Part shown: positions 16,821 to 52,613 of the stretch, piece after piece
How positions within the stretch are numbered: position 1 is the first letter of the stretch
Layout: each line of letters starts with the position of its first letter
Assembly (NCBI GenBank): GCA_028715605.1
Contig: JAQURM010000003.1
Coordinates: 98,810 to 162,809, forward strand
Length of the DNA: 64,000 nt
DNA from: Desulfovibrionales bacterium
GTDB taxonomy: Bacteria > Desulfobacterota > QYQD01
Direction of reading: 5' to 3'
Program-made: the position numbers and the translations under genes
Notes under the pieces: model-generated
Databases searched by the model: none
What the model was told of the DNA's origin: nothing
The model's input: the letters and a program-made list of their open reading frames with translations, nothing else

Positions 16821-16922
16821 GAGGCACCGTTTTCTGGACGACCAGCTATTTTCAAACAGCCAAGGTGTTACTAATTTTTGATCTCTCCGTGCCTTGGCGC
16901 CTTTGTGGCTAAATTTTCCTTC

Positions 16923-41173: not shown

Positions 41174-41746
41174 ATGAAAAAACTAGCGGAGTTTCTCAAC
41201 TCACCTTTCGGGCTTCTTATCGCAGGGGCCATAATCAGCGGGCTTCTCGTCCAGTATATAGCCTCTAAGTGGCAGCAGAAGAACTGGCTCTTTCAACAAC
41301 GGTTCACGGCAGAGAGCGCCAAATTTGATAAGGAGCTGGAACAGAAATACAAAATCCTGGAGGAGATTAATAGGTCTGTTGCAGAGATTCTGACACACTC
41401 TCAGGATGTGACAGTAGGGTATATGAAACAGGTACCGGCAAAGCAAAGGGAGGAAGAAATCCTCAACTACAACGAAGCGCAGATGAAATGGGAAAATAAT
41501 TTCCGGATACATACGATCCGCATCAAGACTTTTTTTACGGACAAGAAGCTCCAGACAATGTGGGACGATATCAAGAAAGAACGGGACCACTTGGATGTTG
41601 CGTTTTACATGCTGACGGCACGAGGTCAAGGAACGCCTGAAGAATGTCTGGATATGATCAATAAGATTTCTGATATGACCGTTAACTTATCGCAGCGTAT
41701 GCTGGCAGAGATTAATCAGATGAAACAACGTGGTTCCAAGTTGTAA
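41174..41746 (+). CDS. Hypothetical protein with N-terminal TM helix and coiled-coil region
   Basis: ATG at 41174 behind GAGAGG. LLIAGAIISGLLVQYIA TM segment. Confidence 0.5.
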   Translation: MKKLAEFLNSPFGLLIAGAIISGLLVQYIASKWQQKNWLFQQRFTAESAKFDKELEQKYKILEEINRSVAEILTHSQDVTVGYMKQVPAKQREEEILNYNEAQMKWENNFRIHTIRIKTFFTDKKLQTMWDDIKKERDHLDVAFYMLTARGQGTPEECLDMINKISDMTVNLSQRMLAEINQMKQRGSKL

Positions 41747-41833
41747 GACACACTTCCGGATGACGCAGGACTAATCTTTCCCGTAACCGGGAAACAACAG
41801 GCCTACGGCTTGCCGTAGGCAGGAGGAGAGGAG

Positions 41834-42694
41834 ATGATCGGTATCAAGGGACTCGCTGATTTTCAGGATCGTTTTTTCAACAGCGTCAAGGAGAAAAGTG
41901 CGGAACTAATAAAAGGGAATCTGGACGAGGAATTAAGGTCAGGTAAAGATTTTCCCGTATCAATCAGAGCTGACTTCTGCCTGCTTATAAACGAAATAAA
42001 TGCCCTGAAGGGGGCGGAGAGCCTTCTCGCTGGCGTTACCAAAGAGTTACAAAATGATTTTAAGGAGCTTATCAACAGTACGAGTTTCGATAACTTTGTT
42101 GACAACTTCAGGGAGCTGGTCACGGTCGAACAGTTTAAAAAGGCACCCGACGTCTTGCGTGGTATCATCCACATGGAAATAGGTCTGGTTTTATCGTTTG
42201 TCACCGTCCTAAAGAACTTCGAAAGGCTTCAGATGGAAGATTATGCAGAGAGCCTTAATCAGTATTTCTTTGCACGGGACGGATACAAAACCGTATCCGG
42301 GGATCTGATTATGCGGCCTCAGTTCCCTAATGTCCGCAATTTGGAGGACGCAAGGGGAATCGGTGACCAGATCAATGCCGAACGTTATATCCGGGATATA
42401 ACCAGGATCGTCGGAGAAACTACCGGCGACGCACTGTATGATCTCAGGCCCCGCTACGTCAGGCTTGTTCAGCAGTATCAGTCGGATTCCATTAAGAAGC
42501 TCATAGGCTGGTTTAATTCATTTGGAGACCTGGCGGAGGCCTCGTTGCTCCCGGCCGTTGAAGGTATAATCAACGGGGCCTTTAACCTCAGCTTAAATCC
42601 CCTGATAGCCGCAGCCATAGGGACGTTTTGCTCGGTTACCGCACGAAAGGCCACGGAGCATTCGTATCTTGCTCTTTTGAGGATAATGCCGTAG
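41834..42694 (+). CDS. Hypothetical protein (286 aa)
   Basis: RBS AGGAGGAGAGGAG preceded by a perfect hairpin GCCTACGG-CTT-GCCGTAGGC. Confidence 0.5.
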   Translation: MIGIKGLADFQDRFFNSVKEKSAELIKGNLDEELRSGKDFPVSIRADFCLLINEINALKGAESLLAGVTKELQNDFKELINSTSFDNFVDNFRELVTVEQFKKAPDVLRGIIHMEIGLVLSFVTVLKNFERLQMEDYAESLNQYFFARDGYKTVSGDLIMRPQFPNVRNLEDARGIGDQINAERYIRDITRIVGETTGDALYDLRPRYVRLVQQYQSDSIKKLIGWFNSFGDLAEASLLPAVEGIINGAFNLSLNPLIAAAIGTFCSVTARKATEHSYLALLRIMP

Positions 42695-42766
42695 GATTTG
42701 AAATTTCAAATTTGAGATCAGGACAAAAGAAGGAAGCAGCCATGTTAGCGAAACCCTTTGCAGAAT

Positions 42767-42800
42767 CCCCGCGGCTTGCCGCGGGGTGCCATATTTTATT
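42767..42800 (+). terminator. Hairpin terminator downstream of the 41834 gene
   Basis: ccccgcgg cttg ccgcgggg followed by a T-rich tract. Confidence 0.55.
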
Positions 42801-42840
42801 TATTGACACACAGTCTTGAGTCTGGTAAACGTAACCTAAT

Positions 42841-42894
42841 ATGAAAATTTATGACGGCATAATTTTACGCTGGTGGTGGAGTGGGTTGATATAG
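42841..42894 (+). CDS. trpL: trp operon leader peptide MKIYDGIILRWWWSGLI with three consecutive Trp codons
   Basis: 17-codon ORF with TGG TGG TGG at 42871-42879, followed by alternative hairpins and an attenuator terminator 190 nt upstream of trpE. Confidence 0.7.
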   Translation: MKIYDGIILRWWWSGLI

Positions 42895-42944
42895 GGTGAG
42901 GTGTACCCACTTCCCGGTTATTAACATACGTGCCGTTCAATAAA

Positions 42945-42979
42945 CCGTGGGTCATCTCAAAATGACCTGCGGTTTTTTT
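42945..42979 (+). terminator. trp attenuator: 11-bp stem (2 G-U pairs), CUCAAA loop, U7 tail
   Basis: ccgtgggtcat ctcaaa atgacctgcgg ttttttt. The left arm gtgggt can alternatively pair with acccac (42905-42910), giving an antiterminator. ggagtgggt (region 1, after the Trp codons) can pair with acccacttcc. Confidence 0.75.
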
Positions 42980-43089
42980 ATTGTAACTGCTCAATTAGCC
43001 ACCAAGGCACCAAGACACAAAAGAAAGAAATCCCTAATGTTGACGCCTTGGCGTCTTAGTGGCTGAATAGTTGTTTTTTAAAAGGTAAA

Positions 43090-44565
43090 ATGTATTCACC
43101 AACCTTTGAACAATTTAATAAGCTTGCTCAGCAAGGAAATCTCATTCCGGTCTATCGGGACATCCTTGCGGATATGGAGACCCCTCTTTCCATTTACCGT
43201 AAGCTGGAAGAGGGAAAATATTCCTTTCTCCTGGAGAGCATGGAGGGCGGGGAAAAATGGGGGCGTTATAGTTTCATCGGCCTGAACCCCTCGGTCATAA
43301 TCCGGGCCAAAGGCGACAGATTGGAACGCCTCAATGCCGCCGGTGAGGTCCATACTGAAACCGGGGATCCTATCCTGTTCCTGCGCAAGGTCTTGTCGGC
43401 TTACAAACCCGTGGTATTTGACGGCCTGCCCCGTTTTTTTGGCGGCGCCGTGGGTTACCTGGGTTATGACACCGTACGCTTTATAGAGGCTATTCCGGAG
43501 ATCAATCCGGACGTGCTTGGCTTCCACGATATGGTCTTTGTAATATGTGACCAGATCCTCATCTACGACACCTTCAACCAGTCTCTTAGGGTCATAACGA
43601 ATGTGCGCATCAAGGAAGGCGATGATCTGCAATCGCTTTATGATCAGGCCATAGCCGGGATAGACGGCATTGTTGACAGACTGCGCAGGGCACCGGTTTC
43701 GCAGCCGGAGGATATTCCCCAGGATGATCTTCCGGTATCGGCCAACATGCCGCCTGAGGACTTTAAGTGTATGGTCGGAAAGGCCAAGGAGTATATCCGG
43801 GCGGGAGACATCATTCAGGTGGTGTTGGCCCAGCGCTTTCAGACGACGTGGCAAGGAGATCCCTTTTCGGTTTATCGGGCGTTGCGTAAGATAAATCCCT
43901 CGCCGTACCTCTTTTACCTCCGTTTTGATGACGAATATCTGATCGGTTCTTCACCGGAGGTCCTGGTACGGCTGGAGAACCGGAAAATAGAAGTCCGGCC
44001 CATTGCCGGGACGCGGCCCCGCGGAACAAACGAGGAAGAAGATCGCAGGCTGGAACAAGAACTCCTGAACGATCCCAAGGAACGGGCCGAGCATATAATG
44101 CTGGTTGACCTGGGGCGAAATGATGTGGGCCGGGTAGCCGGATACGGCAGCGTAGAAGTAAACGAACTGATGGCTATTGAACGGTATTCACACGTCATGC
44201 ATATAGTTTCCAATGTGCGCGGCCTGTTAAAAGAAGGCAAGGATGCCTTTGACGTTTTCTCCGCTACGTTTCCGGCCGGCACGGTAAGCGGCGCCCCAAA
44301 GGTGCGGGCCATGGAGATCATTGAAGAACTGGAGCCCGACCGCCGCGGGCCGTACGCCGGTGCGGTTGGTTATTTCAGCTTTTCCGGCAACATGGACCTG
44401 TGTATCGCCATCCGCACGCTGCTCATTAAAAATGGACGGATAAGTGTCCAGGCCGGGGCGGGGATCGTAGCTGATTCCGATCCGGATAAGGAATATCAGG
44501 AGACGGTAAACAAGGCGCGCGGTATGCTGAGGGCTATCGAATGGGCAAAAAAGGGATTGGAATAG
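43090..44565 (+). CDS. trpE: Anthranilate synthase component I
   Basis: LLES..GG..GRYSFIG and the chorismate-binding C-terminal core (GAVGYF, G.G.V.DS). Confidence 0.95.
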   Translation: MYSPTFEQFNKLAQQGNLIPVYRDILADMETPLSIYRKLEEGKYSFLLESMEGGEKWGRYSFIGLNPSVIIRAKGDRLERLNAAGEVHTETGDPILFLRKVLSAYKPVVFDGLPRFFGGAVGYLGYDTVRFIEAIPEINPDVLGFHDMVFVICDQILIYDTFNQSLRVITNVRIKEGDDLQSLYDQAIAGIDGIVDRLRRAPVSQPEDIPQDDLPVSANMPPEDFKCMVGKAKEYIRAGDIIQVVLAQRFQTTWQGDPFSVYRALRKINPSPYLFYLRFDDEYLIGSSPEVLVRLENRKIEVRPIAGTRPRGTNEEEDRRLEQELLNDPKERAEHIMLVDLGRNDVGRVAGYGSVEVNELMAIERYSHVMHIVSNVRGLLKEGKDAFDVFSATFPAGTVSGAPKVRAMEIIEELEPDRRGPYAGAVGYFSFSGNMDLCIAIRTLLIKNGRISVQAGAGIVADSDPDKEYQETVNKARGMLRAIEWAKKGLE

Positions 44566-44568
44566 GCG

Positions 44569-45147
44569 ATGATATTCATCCTCGATAATTATGATTCCTT
44601 TACTTATAATCTCGTCCAGGCCTTTGGCGAGATGGGTGAAGACCTGATCGTGGAGCGCAACGATAAGATCGGCCTCAAGGGGATTGAAAGACTTTCTCCC
44701 TCACACCTGGTCATTTCTCCCGGGCCGTGTTCTCCGGAAGAGGCTGGCATTTCCGTGACAGCTATCCGGTATTTTGCCGGCCGGCTGCCCATACTCGGGG
44801 TCTGCCTGGGGCATCAGTCCATAGGCGCGGCCTTTGGCGGCCGCATAGCGCGCGCCGAAAGGCTCATGCACGGCAAGACCTCTTTGATCTATCACGACGG
44901 GCAAACGATTTTTGAGGGGCTGCCGCTGCCCTTTGAGGCCACGCGCTATCACTCGCTTATTGTAGAGAAAGAGTCCCTGCCCGATTGTCTGGAGATAACC
45001 GCCTGGACCGAAGAGGGAGAAATCATGGGCCTTCGGCACAAAGAGCTTATCATAGAGGGGGTACAATTCCACCCCGAATCAATCCTGACCAGAGAGGGAC
45101 CGGGGCTCCTGAAGAATTTTACAAGACTGTCCGGGGGGAGGAGATGA
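44569..45147 (+). CDS. trpG: Anthranilate synthase component II (glutamine amidotransferase)
   Basis: [12 protein letters not shown] catalytic Cys and HPES. Confidence 0.95.
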
Positions 45148-46166
45148 CTGTGATCAAGGAAACGCTGGCTCGGGTAGTTAACCGCCAGGACTTAAGCGAA
45201 GAGGAAATGACGGCGGTTATGGAAGAGATTATGAGCGGCGCCTGTACGCCGGCCCAGATAGGGGCCTTTATCACGGCGCTCCGCATGAAGGGTGAATCTG
45301 TAGCGGAGATAACCGGAGCAGCCCGCGTAATGCGGGAAAAAGCCACTCAGATTAAGGTTGAGGCAGAGATAGTGGTGGATATCGTCGGCACCGGCGGTGA
45401 CGCCTCTAATACCTTCAATGTTTCTACAACCGCTGCCTTTGTAATAGCCGCATCGGGAGTGAAAGTGGCGAAACATGGAAATCGTGCGGTCTCATCCCGT
45501 TGTGGGAGCGCCGATGTCCTGGAGGCGCTGGGGGCCAACTTAGATATTTCACCTTCACTCGTGGCCGCCTGCATAGGTAAGGTTGGTTTTGGCTTTCTTT
45601 TCGCTCCCAAATTACACCTGGCCATGAAACACGCCATCGGTCCCCGAAGGGAGATAGGACTGCGTACCATATTCAACATTCTTGGGCCTCTGACCAATCC
45701 GGCCGGGGCCAATGTTCAGGTCCTCGGGGTCTATGATGGCAGTCTGGCGAATACCTTGGCCTCGGTGCTGAAAAATCTGGGGTGCAAGGCGGCTATGGTG
45801 GTCTTTGGTGAAGGCGGGTATGACGAGCTGAGTATAGTTGGGCCTACCCGGGTAAGCGAACTCAAAGGAGGCGCTGTCCGCGATTATGTCGTGCAGCCGG
45901 ATGATTTTGGCCTCAAAAGGGCTACTCCGGCGGAGATTATTGGTGGCGATGCGGCAAAAAACGCACAGATTGTGCGGTCTATTTTTGCCGGTGAAAAAGG
46001 GGCCTGCCGGGATATGGTGGTTCTTAATGCGGCTGCCGCCTTGGCTATCAGCGGCAAGGCGAGAGACATGTCCGAAGGTGTAAGGATGGCCGAGGAACTC
46101 ATAGATAGCGGTGCAGCAGGCAAAAAGCTTGAGGAATACATCACGTTTTCCCGGAAAGCGGCATGA
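45144..46166 (+). CDS. trpD: Anthranilate phosphoribosyltransferase
   Basis: ATGA overlap with the trpG stop. [27 protein letters not shown]. Confidence 0.9.
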
Positions 46167-46219
46167 GATGAGAGATAGAAAAGATCATGGCTGATAGCTG
46201 ACCGCTGAAAGCTGAAGGC

Positions 46220-47035
46220 TTGATTACTATGATTTTAGATAAAATCGTTGCCCATAAGAGACTTGAGGTGGCCCGGCGTAGGGAGGAAGAACCCATTCCT
46301 GTCTTGATGCAGGAGATAGGTCGCTTGGCAGCACCGCGTTCATTGAGCAGCGCTCTTACTGCGGGTGGCGGAATAAATATAATTGCCGAGATAAAGCGGG
46401 CTTCACCCTCTGCCGGCATGATAGCCGGTAACATAGACCCGTCGTCTGTTGCTATGGAATATGAGATGGGTGGGGCAGCGGCCATTTCGGTATTGACGGA
46501 CAGGGAATTTTTTGCCGGTGACATTGCCTTTCTGCCCCAGGTCAGGCGGACGGTCTCGCTTCCCGTGCTTCGTAAAGATTTCCTCATAGACCCCTACCAG
46601 GTCTATGAGGCCAGGGCCTACGGGGCGGATGCCATCCTGCTCATTGCCGCCATCCTGGGAAACAGAGAGCTGAAGTCGTTTCTTGATTTGACACATGGGC
46701 TGGGGATGGAGGCCCTGGTTGAGGTGCATGATGAGCATGAACTCCATCGGGTACTGGAGACCGGAGCCGGCGTGATCGGGATCAATAACCGGAACCTCAA
46801 GGACTTTACAGTATCGCTGGAAGCCACCTTTAACCTTTGCCGCAAGATACCGGCGGGGAAGATAATAGTCAGTGAAAGCGGGATTAAAACCCGTTCCGAC
46901 ATTGTCCGGCTGGAAGAGGCCGGGATACAGGCGGTCTTGATCGGAGAGACCTTGATGCGAGCCCCGGACAGGACAAAAGCGATTATGGAGCTGTTAGGAA
47001 AAAGTGATCAGGATAAAGGTGTGTGGTATCACTAA
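46220..47035 (+). CDS. trpC: Indole-3-glycerol-phosphate synthase
   Basis: IIAEIKRASPS, LRKDF, and the GINNRNL region. Confidence 0.95.
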   Translation: MITMILDKIVAHKRLEVARRREEEPIPVLMQEIGRLAAPRSLSSALTAGGGINIIAEIKRASPSAGMIAGNIDPSSVAMEYEMGGAAAISVLTDREFFAGDIAFLPQVRRTVSLPVLRKDFLIDPYQVYEARAYGADAILLIAAILGNRELKSFLDLTHGLGMEALVEVHDEHELHRVLETGAGVIGINNRNLKDFTVSLEATFNLCRKIPAGKIIVSESGIKTRSDIVRLEEAGIQAVLIGETLMRAPDRTKAIMELLGKSDQDKGVWYH

Positions 47036-47618
47036 TATTGAGGATGCGTTGGCGGCCCAGGCCCTTGGGGCAGACGCCATAGGGCTGGTATTTGCCGAAA
47101 GCCCCCGCCGGGTGGAGAAAGAACGGGCCCGGAAGATCGTCCATGCCCTGCCTCCCTTTGTGCATTTGGTCGGGGTTTTCGTGGATGAAGAAAAGAGCGT
47201 GGTAGAGGAGATAGCTGATTTTTGCCGGTTGACGGTCTTGCAGTTCCACGGGTCGGAATCTCCTGAGTATTGTGCGGGATTTACCCGTCCTGTAATTAAG
47301 GCATTTCGCATAAGTCAGAGAGAAGATATCGAACGTATGGAACCGTACCAGGGTAAGGTAAGCGCATTTCTTTTAGACACCTATCACCCCGCGCTTGCCG
47401 GCGGTACCGGGCAGGCCTTTGATTGGACTATGGCTAAAGAGGCCGGAAAGATCGGGCCGGTTATCCTGGCCGGCGGCCTTAACCCGGATAATGTCGAGGC
47501 TGCCATCCGGGCTGTTAGGCCCTATGCGGTTGATGTGAGCAGCGGCGTGGAGATGTCGCCGGGCAAGAAGGATCATGATAAGATACAGCTGTTTATAGAA
47601 CGGGCGCAGCAGGCGTAA
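47004..47618 (+). CDS. trpF: Phosphoribosylanthranilate isomerase
   Basis: IKVCGIT, QFHG.E and LAGGL. 32-nt overlap with trpC. Confidence 0.9.
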   Translation: MIRIKVCGITNIEDALAAQALGADAIGLVFAESPRRVEKERARKIVHALPPFVHLVGVFVDEEKSVVEEIADFCRLTVLQFHGSESPEYCAGFTRPVIKAFRISQREDIERMEPYQGKVSAFLLDTYHPALAGGTGQAFDWTMAKEAGKIGPVILAGGLNPDNVEAAIRAVRPYAVDVSSGVEMSPGKKDHDKIQLFIERAQQA

Positions 47619-47682
47619 ATCATATAATCAGCCCGTCTTCTGAATTCTGTCTTCTGTATTCTTTCTAAAGGAGGTAAGCATA

Positions 47683-48870
47683 ATGCTTCCAGACAAAAGA
47701 GGGCATTTTGGCATGTTTGGGGGACGTTTTGTCCCGGAAACATTGATGCCGGCCCTTATGGAACTCGGGAAAAAATATCACTACTACCGGAAAGACAGGT
47801 CCTTTAAGGAAGAGCTCCGCTTCTACCTTACGGAATACACGGGCAGGCCAACCCCGCTTTACTTCTGCAAGCGTCTTACGGAGAAACTAAAAAGGGCCAG
47901 GGTCTATTTAAAGCGGGAAGACTTGACCCACACCGGGGCACACAAGATAAATAATACCTTGGGCCAGGTCTTGCTGGCCAGGAAAATGGGCAAAAAGCGG
48001 GTTATTGCCGAGACCGGAGCCGGACAGCACGGCGTGGCCACGGCCACCGCTGCGGCCCTTTTGGGCCTGGAGTGCGATGTCTATATGGGCGCGGTGGACA
48101 TCAAGAGACAGGCCATGAATGTCTTTCGTATGCAGCTACTCGGTGCCAAGGTCATACCTGTGGAACAGGGCAGCAAGACCCTGAAGGACGCTATTAACGA
48201 GGCTATCCGGGACTGGGTAACCAACGTTCAAAATACCCATTATGTGATCGGCTCGGTGGTGGGGCCGCATCCTTATCCCATGATAGTCCGTGACTTCCAA
48301 TCGGTAATCGGTCAGGAGACGCGGCGGCAAATCCTAAAAAAAGAGGGACGCCTTCCCGATGTTATTATAGCCTGCGTGGGCGGCGGGAGTAATGCTATGG
48401 GCATCTTTTATCCCTTCCGAAGTGACCCGGTCCGCTTGATCGGCGTGGAGGCGGGTGGGGAGGGCATCCCCTCCGGGCAGCACTCGGCTACCCTCGGTGC
48501 CGGAAGCATCGGCGTTCTGCATGGGGCTATGAGCTACCTGCTTCAGACCGCTGACGGCCAGATCAGAGATACCCATTCCGTAGCTGCGGGTCTTGACTAT
48601 CCCGGTGTGGGGCCGGAACACGCCCATTATCAGGATAGCAAGCGCGCGGAATACGTCTCGGTAACGGATGCCGAGGCATTGGAAGGTTTTAAGCTCCTTT
48701 CCGAGACCGAGGGGATTATCCCTGCCTTGGAGAGTGCGCATGCCATCGCCTACGCCGCCAAGATTGTGCCCAGGTTGTCCCGTAAGGATATAGTAGTAAT
48801 CAACCTCTCCGGCCGGGGAGATAAAGATGTAGAGACCGTAGCCGGTCTTTTAGCAGGAGGTGCTGCATGA
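47683..48870 (+). CDS. trpB: Tryptophan synthase beta chain
   Basis: [12 protein letters not shown]-Lys and GGGSNA.G. Confidence 0.95.
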
Positions 48871-49658
48871 GCCGTATAGCAGAGGTTTTTGCCGGCAAGA
48901 AAAAAAACAAGAAAGCTGCTCTCATCCCGTTTCTTACCGCCGGTGATCCATCTCTTGACCATACCGCAGAACTGGTGTTGGAGATGGAACGGCAGGGGGC
49001 GGATCTAATTGAATTGGGTGTGCCTTTTTCCGATCCCTTAGCCGACGGGCCGACCATCCAGGCCGCCAGCCAGCGTGCCTTGACCCAGGGTGTACGCCTG
49101 GAGGACGTCATCGGCCTGGTTCGGAATCTTCGCAGCAAAACCCGTATCCCGCTCGTCCTGATGACTTATTATAATCCGGTCTTGCAGTATGGGTTGAAAC
49201 GCACGGCCCGGAAAGCAGCTCAAGCCGGCGTGGATGGCTTTATCATCCCTGATCTTCCTCCCGAAGAAGCAGAAGAGTGGAAAAAAGAGGCAGACAAAGC
49301 CGGTCTGGACACCATTTTTCTCCTGGCTCCGACCAGTGACCTCGACCGGATTAAGAAGGTTACCCGCTTGAGCAGCGGTTTTATCTACTATGTCTCGGTT
49401 ACCGGCATAACCGGCGTCAGGAAAGATCTGCCGGGCGATCTTCTGGCTAAGTTAAAATTGGTCAAGAAACACGCTACCGTTCCTGTGTCTGTGGGATTTG
49501 GCATCTCCACACCGGAACAGGTGGCCATGCTGGCCCCGCATGCGGACGGCATCATCGTGGGCAGCGCCATTGTAAATCTTATAGCCAGACATGCTGAAGA
49601 TCCGCAGCTCGTGCCCATCGTGGGCCGATTTGTGGCCCATCTCAAGACCGGGATATAG
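48867..49658 (+). CDS. trpA: Tryptophan synthase alpha chain
   Basis: ATGA overlap with trp[22 protein letters not shown] and YYVS.TGVTG. Confidence 0.95.
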
Positions 49659-50604: not shown

Positions 50605-52464
50605 CTACTGTAAAATTCCAACCTGCGGTGGGCACGCCTCGTCGTGCTCCCTCTCTCTAATCGCACATTTTTTTTCAAAGCCGGCGTATAGAGATTTCAG
50701 CCGGGCTTTCTGCCGCTCCACAGTCGGCGGGATGGATGCCAGGTTTTCTCCCGGATAGGGCTGCTTTCGCCCAATATCAAGGCAAAAATCCATACTTTTT
50801 TCGAGATGGTCCTTGAATTCCCGCAGGTTTTTGATTTCTTTGGGCGTGTGTTGACTGCGAGCCACCTGTTTTTCGAAGTAATCCACGTACAGCACGATTT
50901 CGTTGGCAAACATGTGCGGCCGCTGAGATGAAACCAGGGACGGGCTCCGCCCGTAGATGTGATCCACCATCTCTTGCAAGGTGTAAATTCCGTTGAACCA
51001 GGCGAGGTTAGGGCCGGGGCATATACACTGGGGCGCATCTTTGGCCTCGGCGATTCCCAGGGCGATGAGGGCTCCATTTCCCAGATGATCGCAGATACAG
51101 GCCCTTTCCATGATCTCCTCACGCAGCCTTTCTTTCTCAGCCTCCGGAAGCCCCATCTGGTTTATCTCTTTCAGCTTATTTTTCTGGAATTGTCTGGAGG
51201 CAAGACATATAGGTTTTTTAGTAAATTCGGTGTTGGATATCAGATAACCCTTGGCACAGGGAGAGCCCGGCCTGCCCTCCGCCGCCATCTTGCGCAGCCA
51301 CAGTTCTGACCCGGTGTTGCGCACATTGTTGAAAGGAATTCCGAGAGGGGAGGCGCCGCTAATGTAGAGATCAGTTTCTCCGGCCTGCCTTAATAACTCA
51401 CGGGTAGGGGCATCCACACAGGTGGCTTCAGGGACCAGGAGAAACGGGGTGCCCCATCCGGTCAGGTCCATACCGAAGTCTTCCTGCAGCCTGCGCACCT
51501 CTCCGTGGTTGCCGATACCACCCTGAACAGTGATGAGTGGGCCGGTTTCCAGACCCGGTTCCGGATAGGTCCAGCCCATATCCCGGTAGTGCCTGAGTAT
51601 CAGCGGTTTAAATTCTGCGGCCAGTTGCCCGCGTTTTTCCTTGAATTCCTGGAGAATGCCGGGGAGTAAAATTCCGTTGGTGGGAAAGGCATGCCCTCCG
51701 CAATTAAGTCCTGATTCAACGCGGAATTCATGCACCTCCAATCCCTTTTTCGCCAGGAACTTCCCCTGGATGAGTGCGGAGCGGAAGTCGCTCACCTTGA
51801 GGATTATCTTCTTTTTGACCTCACCCCGTTCATCCCGGTAAAAATCCCGGAACCGGGTCATGTAGGTGTAAAGGCTCTGGTTAATCCCGGCGGAAAATAC
51901 GATGCCGGACCTGAGGCTGCTATCGGCATAGCCTTTAAGGGCTGTTTTGGCGTCGCTGAATTCATCATCGCGGGGGTGGCCGTTTCTGTCAAAGGTGTTG
52001 TCCAGTTTGACCATAATATTGACGTCAATAGAGCCGGCGTGCATTCTACGGGTCAGATCCCTTTCCAGCGCATCTCGTTCCGGCCCGGCGTGCATATCCA
52101 ACAGCCTGCTGTAATCCTTTTTCAGGGGGCTTTCATCCGGTAACAGCTCAAAATACTTCCTCTTGTCGTTGTCTGCGAAGAAGGGTTGTTGCCGGATGTC
52201 CTCCATTCTAAGCCGAACGATTTCCCGAACGACTTCGAGGTAAGCAGTGATCCTTTTTGCCCTGCCATGCTCTTCGTGCCTTGGGATTTCGACGTATGGT
52301 AAATTGTATTTTTCGCTGTAGTATTTGCGGATTTGTTCGAGCAAAATATCATCTACCAATGAAATAACGGAAGAGATACCCAGCGGAGCCACACGGATGG
52401 GCGTGTCAACAGAGTGCCCGGTACCCATGACCGGGATGTGAAAGGTGTGGTAATAGTCTATCAT
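50605..52464 (-). CDS. Large conserved protein with an FMN-type TIM-barrel-like core (IMPDH/NPD-like GGIGN..G motif) and a C-terminal Cys cluster. Function unknown
   Basis: ATG at 52464 (MIDYYHTF), RBS AAAGGGG. LNCGGHAF, VQGGIGNHGEVRRLQEDFGMDLTGWGTPFLL, CICDH..CICPG. Confidence 0.55.
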   Translation of the reverse strand: MIDYYHTFHIPVMGTGHSVDTPIRVAPLGISSVISLVDDILLEQIRKYYSEKYNLPYVEIPRHEEHGRAKRITAYLEVVREIVRLRMEDIRQQPFFADNDKRKYFELLPDESPLKKDYSRLLDMHAGPERDALERDLTRRMHAGSIDVNIMVKLDNTFDRNGHPRDDEFSDAKTALKGYADSSLRSGIVFSAGINQSLYTYMTRFRDFYRDERGEVKKKIILKVSDFRSALIQGKFLAKKGLEVHEFRVESGLNCGGHAFPTNGILLPGILQEFKEKRGQLAAEFKPLILRHYRDMGWTYPEPGLETGPLITVQGGIGNHGEVRRLQEDFGMDLTGWGTPFLLVPEATCVDAPTRELLRQAGETDLYISGASPLGIPFNNVRNTGSELWLRKMAAEGRPGSPCAKGYLISNTEFTKKPICLASRQFQKNKLKEINQMGLPEAEKERLREEIMERACICDHLGNGALIALGIAEAKDAPQCICPGPNLAWFNGIYTLQEMVDHIYGRSPSLVSSQRPHMFANEIVLYVDYFEKQVARSQHTPKEIKNLREFKDHLEKSMDFCLDIGRKQPYPGENLASIPPTVERQKARLKSLYAGFEKKCAIREREHDEACPPQVGILQ

Positions 52465-52613
52465 GTACGCCCCTTTTTGTTCGGTCGAACCGATACAATG
52501 CCTTCGAAAAGGCGCAATACGCAATATGTTACAGCAACCTGCGGTAAGATTCCATAAATCTGTTAAAAAGTCAATGGAGTTCAGGAAGATGTCCCGGGCA
52601 GGCCTCCGATAAT

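Follow-up and report, generated by a model that had tools for sequence, protein, structure and literature searches.

By a 2010 account, leader-peptide attenuation was an established system in both Proteobacteria and Actinobacteria (PMC2965389). Within the latter, Corynebacterium and Streptomyces are predicted to have classical trp attenuators (Seliverstov et al. 2005, PMC1262725), and a report on Sinorhizobium meliloti presents trpL as a ribosome-dependent attenuator with consecutive tryptophan (Trp) codons upstream of trpE(G) (PMC6614838). In Deinococcus deserti, where start sites were mapped by differential RNA-seq, leader peptides including that of trpEGD are encoded by leaderless mRNAs (de Groot et al. 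2014, PMC4007540). Tryptophan is not mentioned by Rodionov et al. 2004 (PMC545781), and we found, among the papers searched, no description of a trp leader peptide in the Deltaproteobacteria/Desulfobacterota, a missing match that is not proof of absence. Here we describe an element upstream of the trpEGDCFBA operon in a 64,000-nucleotide stretch of a Desulfovibrionales bacterium genome (contig JAQURM010000003.1; hereafter the window, from whose first nucleotide all coordinates are counted). The element is a genuine, conserved attenuator of the well-known Escherichia coli trpL design in a lineage for which we found no such description. From its sequence we consider it highly likely to act as a ribosome-mediated (leader-peptide) transcription attenuator of the whole operon, and it very probably senses Trp.

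Results

A Trp-codon leader and its alternative RNA structures

The trpL-like leader open reading frame (ORF) occupies 42841-42894 of the forward strand and comprises 17 codons and a stop (ATG AAA ATT TAT GAC GGC ATA ATT TTA CGC TGG TGG TGG AGT GGG TTG ATA TAG), encoding MKIYDGIILRWWWSGLI. As a preliminary description of this DNA had recognised, it contains three consecutive UGG codons, numbers 11-13 (42871-42879); the TAG stop lies at 42892-42894. No competing ORF of note was seen on either strand of 42695-43089. The complete operon follows on the same strand at 43090-49658, as was also claimed earlier, with all seven genes assigned from the ORF list and from NCBIfam matches above or near the equivalog cut-offs: trpE (43090-44565; TIGR00564, 587.7 bits), trpG (44569-45147), trpD (45144-46166, its ATG at 45144 overlapping the trpG stop), trpC (46220-47035), trpF (47004-47618), trpB (47683-48870; TIGR00263, 643.2 bits) and trpA (48867-49658). 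A convergent elyC-like gene comes next after trpA. The genome had been called GC-rich, which is incorrect: GC content is about 0.49 at the trp locus and 0.42-0.57 across the window.

Unconstrained folding of 42830-42985 gave a minimum free energy (MFE) of -50.5 kcal/mol against a shuffle mean of -37.8 (z = -3.48), with 0 of 200 shuffles as good. This fold holds three helices: a protector hairpin (1:2), an outer helix (P0) and the terminator. In the protector, which the preliminary description had proposed, GGAGUGGGU (42878-42886) pairs with ACCCACUUC (42905-42913), and three more pairs reach further into Trp codon 12. In the MFE fold, the protector's 5' side is region 1; it covers 42872-42886 and overlaps Trp codons 11-13 together with the next 7 nt, while region 2, defined by constrained folds, covers 42897-42918, of which 42905-42918 pairs with region 1. 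The terminator is the sole terminator-like site found by a consensus scan of 42400-43300, and has the form expected of the proposed 3:4 hairpin: a stem of 14 pairs (42942-42975), a 6-nt loop and a T-run (42973-42979). Its 5' arm (42942-42955) and loop (42956-42961) constitute region 3 (42942-42961), and its 3' arm (42962-42975) and U7 tract (42973-42979) constitute region 4 (42962-42979).

We modelled a stalled ribosome by masking a footprint, of the size generally known for bacterial ribosomes, on each Trp codon, with the nascent RNA ended at 42961, before region 4. Under these conditions the MFE structure is an antiterminator of 13 bp and one bulged U (42897-42910 with 42947-42959; -21.2 kcal/mol), and once weaker inner pairs are counted, 13 of the 14 nt in the terminator 5' arm are sequestered. 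The 5' strand of this helix, UGAGGUG-u-ACCCAC (42897-42903 and 42905-42910), lies within region 2, and its 3' strand, GUGGGU-CAUCUCA (42947-42959), within region 3, so that the antiterminator extends into the terminator loop. As an isolated duplex, regions 2 and 3 pair at -22.4 kcal/mol (z = -3.96; 0 of 300 shuffles equal). When the footprint is placed at the stop codon or omitted, the terminator conformer is the MFE structure. Folding of the alternative conformations, which the preliminary description had recommended, thus gives the two expected outcomes; its ACCCAC/GUGGGU 2:3 pairing exists, but six base pairs underestimate a helix of which they are the core. We also considered a second candidate antiterminator, CCCGGUU with AAACCG-U-GGG, but did not adopt it as the principal helix, since several close relatives have A in place of the C at 42915.

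Region 1 lies within approximately 13 nt of the Trp codons, while region 2, and with it the antiterminator 5' strand, begins at 42897, 3 nt beyond the stop codon. This geometry would fit a ribosome that masks region 1 when on the Trp codons and region 2 when at the stop.

Conservation and covariation in two groups of relatives

A TrpE search of one-genome-per-species contigs and metagenome contigs returned 160 loci. The leader element is present in all ten loci whose TrpE is 77-95% identical (group 1: L001-L007 and L081-L083; 9 distinct sequences), all of them from uncultured Thermodesulfobacteriota or "Deltaproteobacteria" metagenome-assembled genomes (MAGs). A related element occurs in about 22 Syntrophales-like loci with TrpE of 54-60% identity (group 2; 18 distinct sequences). 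The preliminary description had named absence from close relatives as grounds for refutation; instead the element is found in every one of them and in a sister lineage.

Group-1 leader peptides read MK[ITA]YDGIILRWWWSGLI in the closest relatives, MKIFGGVTSGCWWCEWVNIG in L006 and MRAEYCMDLSWWWSGEHNKG in L007. Those of group 2 take the form ...NWWW(W)QNSxEGFxHR, with a region 2 centred on UCCACC and a terminator AGCCGUGGAG...CUCCACGGCUUUUU. Each of the 27 distinct family members has an in-frame ATG, a Trp run (WW, WWW or WWWW) and a stop. The stop follows the Trp run by 12 or 21 nt in group 1 and by 30-33 nt in group 2, and in every member it falls at or inside the antiterminator 5' strand: the window has it 3 nt ahead of that strand, L006 and L007 within the strand, and group 2 just beyond the CCAC core.

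We built a covariance model on 25 sequences; searched against the window and L001-L099, it gave 29 matches of 62-99 bits, one of them in the window and all at loci where a scan for WW-containing ORFs had found the leader; L102 and L103, outside this search, likewise carry it. In the other loci related by TrpE, which number about 128 and come mostly from Desulfobulbales, no short Trp-rich ORF lies within 450 nt of trpE. Model matches of 15-29 bits upstream of trpE in Desulfobulbales were considered as a divergent attenuator and rejected, as they correspond to the terminator of an rpsT-like gene and lack a Trp-rich ORF. In these Desulfobulbales-type loci (L017-L080 and L095-L160; e.g. L066:2090-2312) trpE lies 40-380 nt downstream of an S20-like (rpsT) gene with a strong terminator, the gene being labelled by eye from its C-terminus (…KGTIHKKTASRKVSRLTKRVN…). 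Given the lack of a Trp-codon leader in these relatives, trp regulation differs between neighbouring orders.

Of the 27 distinct sequences, 25 have the terminator 5' arm sequestered in the stalled-ribosome fold, with at least 9 nt of the arm paired in 24 and 6 nt in L006. Duplexes of regions 2 and 3 have z-scores of -2.3 to -5 across the family, with L089 an exception at -1.5. Because of the antiterminator pairing, the segment GGGTGAGGTG.(A/C)CCCAC is kept across group 1, with a single substitution in each of L006 and L007.

When the 27 sequences were fitted to the covariance model's own structure, 97.9% of cells in the terminated conformer were paired, and the covariation score was 0.362 compared with 0.239 for shuffles (0 of 500 reach 0.362) and at most 0.174 with partners slid. 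Support is firm for the terminator, where both partners have changed in five of ten pairs and 98.5% of cells are paired. The consensus 1:2 helix joins UGGUGGUG.G to CCACC... with 97.2% of cells paired; here the Trp codons themselves pair with CCACC, and variation is almost only from G-C to G-U. In the antiterminator, a core pair that group 1 has as C-G is U-A in group 2, and cognate duplexes of regions 2 and 3 are more stable, at -17.25 kcal/mol versus -14.1 when swapped; the window's own pairing is bettered by 1 of 20 swaps. The antiterminator is thus supported mainly by per-sequence energetics and conservation.

P0, an optional long-range helix enclosing 1:2 in the MFE fold, pairs GACGGCAU (42853-42860, leader codons 5-7) with GUGCCGUU (42930-42937). 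One compensatory C-G to U-A change occurs in L005, alongside several G-U/G-C changes. We dropped the idea that P0 serves as a pause or synchronising hairpin: its duplex-versus-shuffle z is near 0 for most family members, including group 2. It is a feature of the close clade only, with no established role.

Between the attenuator and trpE, nearly all group-2 leaders hold a second hairpin, aaaaGGCCGUGA...UCACGGCCuuuuuu, that is conserved and carries a U-run (L010, L011, L012, L014, L015, L018, L086, L088, L089, L092, L093, L094, L097 and L102). It lies 30-60 nt past the first terminator (e.g. L088:672-720) and has no equivalent in the window. When group-2 read-through RNA was folded, the 3' arm and U-run of the first terminator paired with the A-run and 5' arm of the second hairpin in 12 of 14 cases. 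In this model, one leader peptide may control two tandem terminators in group 2 through a chain of alternative helices.

Promoter and translation start of the leader

A -35 hexamer, TTGACA (42803-42808), lies just downstream of an AT-rich tract, ATATTTTATTTA, and is followed after 17 nt by an extended -10 element, TGgTAAACG (42823-42831). The TTGACA had been put forward as a candidate one position too far downstream, at 42804, and is both present and conserved: it is unchanged in all 9 distinct group-1 sequences despite diverged flanks, and upstream sequence differs entirely between loci while TTGACA and the extended -10 are kept. The -10 region reads GTCTGGTAAA(C/T)GTA in nearly all group-1 sequences, with GTTTGG instead in L005. 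Spacing is equally constant: the ATG follows the initial T of the -35 by 38 nt (40 in L007) and the end of the -10 hexamer by 9 nt (11 in L007).

With only 9 nt between the -10 and the ATG there is no room for a Shine-Dalgarno sequence, and a leaderless mRNA is therefore predicted. Transcription would start at approximately 42838-42840, leaving a 5' untranslated region of 1-3 nt, and in the window's clade translation of the leader ORF is probably leaderless. The ribosome-binding site that the preliminary description judged weak is indeed no Shine-Dalgarno sequence, and is better understood as one for which no space exists. Most group-2 leaders begin about 22-24 nt downstream of the predicted start site, with weak Shine-Dalgarno motifs or none. 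In one group-2 subclade (L094 and L099, with duplicate L103), where the leader is MKMNVENFRMTMAKNWWWQTITVWAVHC, the first in-frame ATG lies 37 nt after TTGACA, a leaderless-type spacing like that of the window's clade.

Flanking features

Upstream of the promoter, a perfect 9-bp GC hairpin (CCCCGCGGC tt GCCGCGGGG) followed by a T-rich stretch spans 42767-42786 on the forward strand. It marks a boundary and is not part of the switch; it is likely the terminator of the upstream gene, insulating the trp promoter. L002 retains only part of it, and L003-L005 have none. In the 107-nt spacer that separates attenuator and trpE, inverted repeats and folding identified an imperfect palindrome of some length, AGCCACCAAGGCACCAAG...CTTGGCGTCTTAGTGGCT (42997-43064, forward strand). 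This is a variable insertion that likewise does not belong to the switch. A partial second copy occurs on the reverse strand at 16891-16910, in another intergenic region of the window. Spacers among close relatives range from 3 to 146 nt and are unrelated in sequence; those of L002, L003 and L081 carry unrelated hairpin repeats (AGCTGAAAGCTGA-type), and some close relatives are without any spacer. From their sequence, the spacer palindromes look like small mobile palindromic repeats.

Further upstream, a 286-aa ORF (41834-42694, forward strand) has no Pfam or NCBIfam match; in L161, an independent assembly, it is called as the gene adjacent to trpE. Right after the stop of this ORF, at 42695-42719, comes an AT-rich and nearly perfect palindrome, GATTTGAAATTT-C-AAATTTGAGATC, where L002 differs. 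A 25-codon ORF encoding MLAKPFAESPRLAAGCHILFIDTQS (42743-42820) has a good Shine-Dalgarno-like AAGGAAG and spans both the upstream hairpin and the trp -35; it is probably fortuitous, because its start is kept in L001 and L002 only. Downstream of the operon, a 639-aa ORF (50605-52524, reverse strand) has no Pfam match.

Discussion

The arrangement suggests the following mechanism. Transcription would start at the sigma-70-type promoter (TTGACA, 17 nt, TGgTAAACG) some 1-3 nt before the leader ATG, with leaderless translation probable. When charged tRNA-Trp is scarce, the ribosome would stall at UGG codons 11-13 with its footprint over region 1; the free 42897-42910 segment of region 2 could then pair with 42947-42959 as soon as the latter is made, sequestering 13 of 14 nt of the terminator 5' arm, and RNA polymerase would read through into trpE. 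When Trp is plentiful, the ribosome would reach the TAG at 42892-42894 and either occlude the antiterminator 5' strand or leave, allowing 1:2 to form. In both cases the 3:4 terminator could form and transcription would end at U7. Because of the position of the stop codon at the antiterminator 5' strand, a ribosome completing the peptide would physically block antitermination. Untranslated transcripts, folding into 1:2 and 3:4, would be expected to terminate too. The full attenuation logic proposed in the preliminary description is supported, in that every element testable in the sequence is present and conserved.

Several points weigh against this account. A generic promoter scan did not call the promoter, and TAAACG fits the consensus at just 3 of 6 positions. 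No Shine-Dalgarno sequence precedes the leader ATG at this locus, so that translation of the leader depends on the leaderless start that we infer from promoter spacing. The antiterminator fails the simple stalled-ribosome test in two group-2 members, L094 and L099. The pair counts come from an alignment of 27 sequences fitted to the covariance model's own structure, and within group 2 the advantage of cognate over swapped duplexes is marginal (p = 0.054). The outer antiterminator helix, scored in fixed columns, is 71% paired with weak covariation (strand-swap p ~0.04); it is marginal in fixed columns because its register differs between subclades. In the window's clade regions 1-3 are almost invariant, and most of the covariation in 1:2 and 2:3 is contributed by the sister group.

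As an addition to attenuation and not an alternative to it, the terminated leader transcript or the 17-residue peptide might also work in trans, as rnTrpL and peTrpL do. The precedent lies in S. meliloti (PMC6614838, PMC7298713), and the C-terminal RWWWSGLI of the peptide is kept within the close clade. This conservation is, however, fully explained by the RNA helices that its codons encode. N-terminal residues vary (I, T or A at position 3, with those of L006 and L007 almost wholly different), the group-2 peptides have in common only the Trp run and the residues encoded by region 2, and the sequence suggests no target. We therefore regard a trans function as unlikely.

A different reading keeps the switch but gives its control to a trans-acting factor, be it a TRAP-like protein, uncharged tRNA-Trp as in a T-box, or a small molecule bound by a riboswitch, the UGG run then being kept solely for its RNA pairing with CCACC. 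In the family consensus, UGGUGG is indeed paired to region 2's CCAC motif, which places an RNA-level constraint on the run too, and the leader ATG is without a Shine-Dalgarno sequence. An Rfam scan of 41500-44500 at E-values up to 10 nevertheless matched neither RF00513 (Trp_leader) nor any other leader, T-box or riboswitch family, and the whole window gave no match at the gathering score. A TRAP-type array of (G/U)AG repeats is absent, with just 3-4 scattered triplets readable. In 27 of 27 sequences the UGG run is in frame with an upstream start codon and with a stop whose place relative to region 2 is fixed, even though the N-terminal coding sequence diverges, and an untranslated RNA would have no reason to keep frame, start and stop. 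Control by such a factor thus appears very improbable.

A chance ORF beside an ordinary unregulated terminator or RNA-stabilising hairpin can be dismissed as scarcely credible. By itself the UGG triplet carries no significance (the 64 kb hold a single TGGTGGTGG, where 0.36 would be expected, and 30 of 100 shuffles have one or more), and one terminator-like site in 900 nt is close to the shuffle expectation of 1.2. The arrangement nevertheless recurs with covarying helices in 27 distinct sequences from two lineages (TrpE ~55-60% identity), its antiterminator is energetically significant in nearly every member, and an essential biosynthetic operon cut off from its promoter by an unregulated terminator would be silent. 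The significance of the attenuator therefore rests on the conjunction of the UGG run with the terminator and trpE, on the fold statistics, and on conservation in 27 distinct related sequences.

Taken together, this analysis carries bacterial gene control in its best-understood form into an uncultured Thermodesulfobacteriota lineage and its Syntrophales-like relatives, without overturning current understanding of attenuation. Related lineages differ in how trpE is regulated, with that of Desulfobulbales following rpsT and having no leader. Two traits of the element are mildly unusual: its translation is probably leaderless, and its antiterminator extends into the terminator loop; if the leader is leaderless, ribosome loading would be tied to the first nucleotides transcribed. 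As a broader proposal, we tentatively describe an attenuator family of Thermodesulfobacteriota and Syntrophales, absent from Rfam and for which we found no description, that is leaderless in the window's clade and in whose sister clade a single peptide controls two tandem terminators through five helices (1:2, 2:3, 3:4, 4:5 and 5:6); for this picture as a whole our confidence falls slightly short of an even balance. The probable leaderless leader ORF and the group-2 two-terminator chain would offer natural variants for studying the coordination of transcription and translation, and the 27-sequence alignment, ready for a covariance model of a family not represented in Rfam, would help MAGs of these lineages to be annotated better.

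Comparison with known systems

With the S. meliloti trpL, the element has in common ribosome-dependent attenuation of trp genes through consecutive Trp codons. According to that work, the rhizobial attenuator controls only trpE(G), in contrast to the whole operon here, and its released RNA and peptide have documented trans functions, of which nothing in the window gives an indication (PMC6614838). The actinobacterial trp attenuators (PMC1262725) resemble it in their double or triple UGG codons, their GC-rich terminator with poly-U, and the reuse of one motif in complementary segments, which is gGCC-rGCy-GGCC there and GUGG(G) / CCCAC / GUGGG / CC(C/U)(A/G)C here. They belong to another phylum, are unrelated in sequence and were defined on other motifs, with homology compared by the Rfam scan alone.

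The attenuation leader peptides of D. deserti (PMC4007540) provide a parallel for the start of the leader, as there the mRNA's 5' end falls at the start codon or 1 nt before it. Start sites were mapped in that species, whereas the arrangement described here is deduced from promoter-to-ATG spacing; the phylum again differs.

The E. coli trpL supplies the design itself. Both have a short leader ORF with tandem UGG codons, four segments forming a 1:2 protector, a 2:3 antiterminator and a 3:4 terminator with a U-run, and a stop codon sited so that a finishing ribosome blocks region 2; in both, the entire trp operon is controlled, with trpE first. The differences lie in the details. There are three Trp codons here and two in E. 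coli, translation is probably leaderless here and led by a Shine-Dalgarno sequence there, and the antiterminator here reaches into the terminator loop. The trpG/trpD and trpC/trpF pairs, fused in E. coli, are separate genes in this operon, and the host is an uncultured Thermodesulfobacteriota lineage. Although no homology of sequence or structure to trpL is detectable by Rfam, and the element is not a member of the RF00513 family, it works like one.

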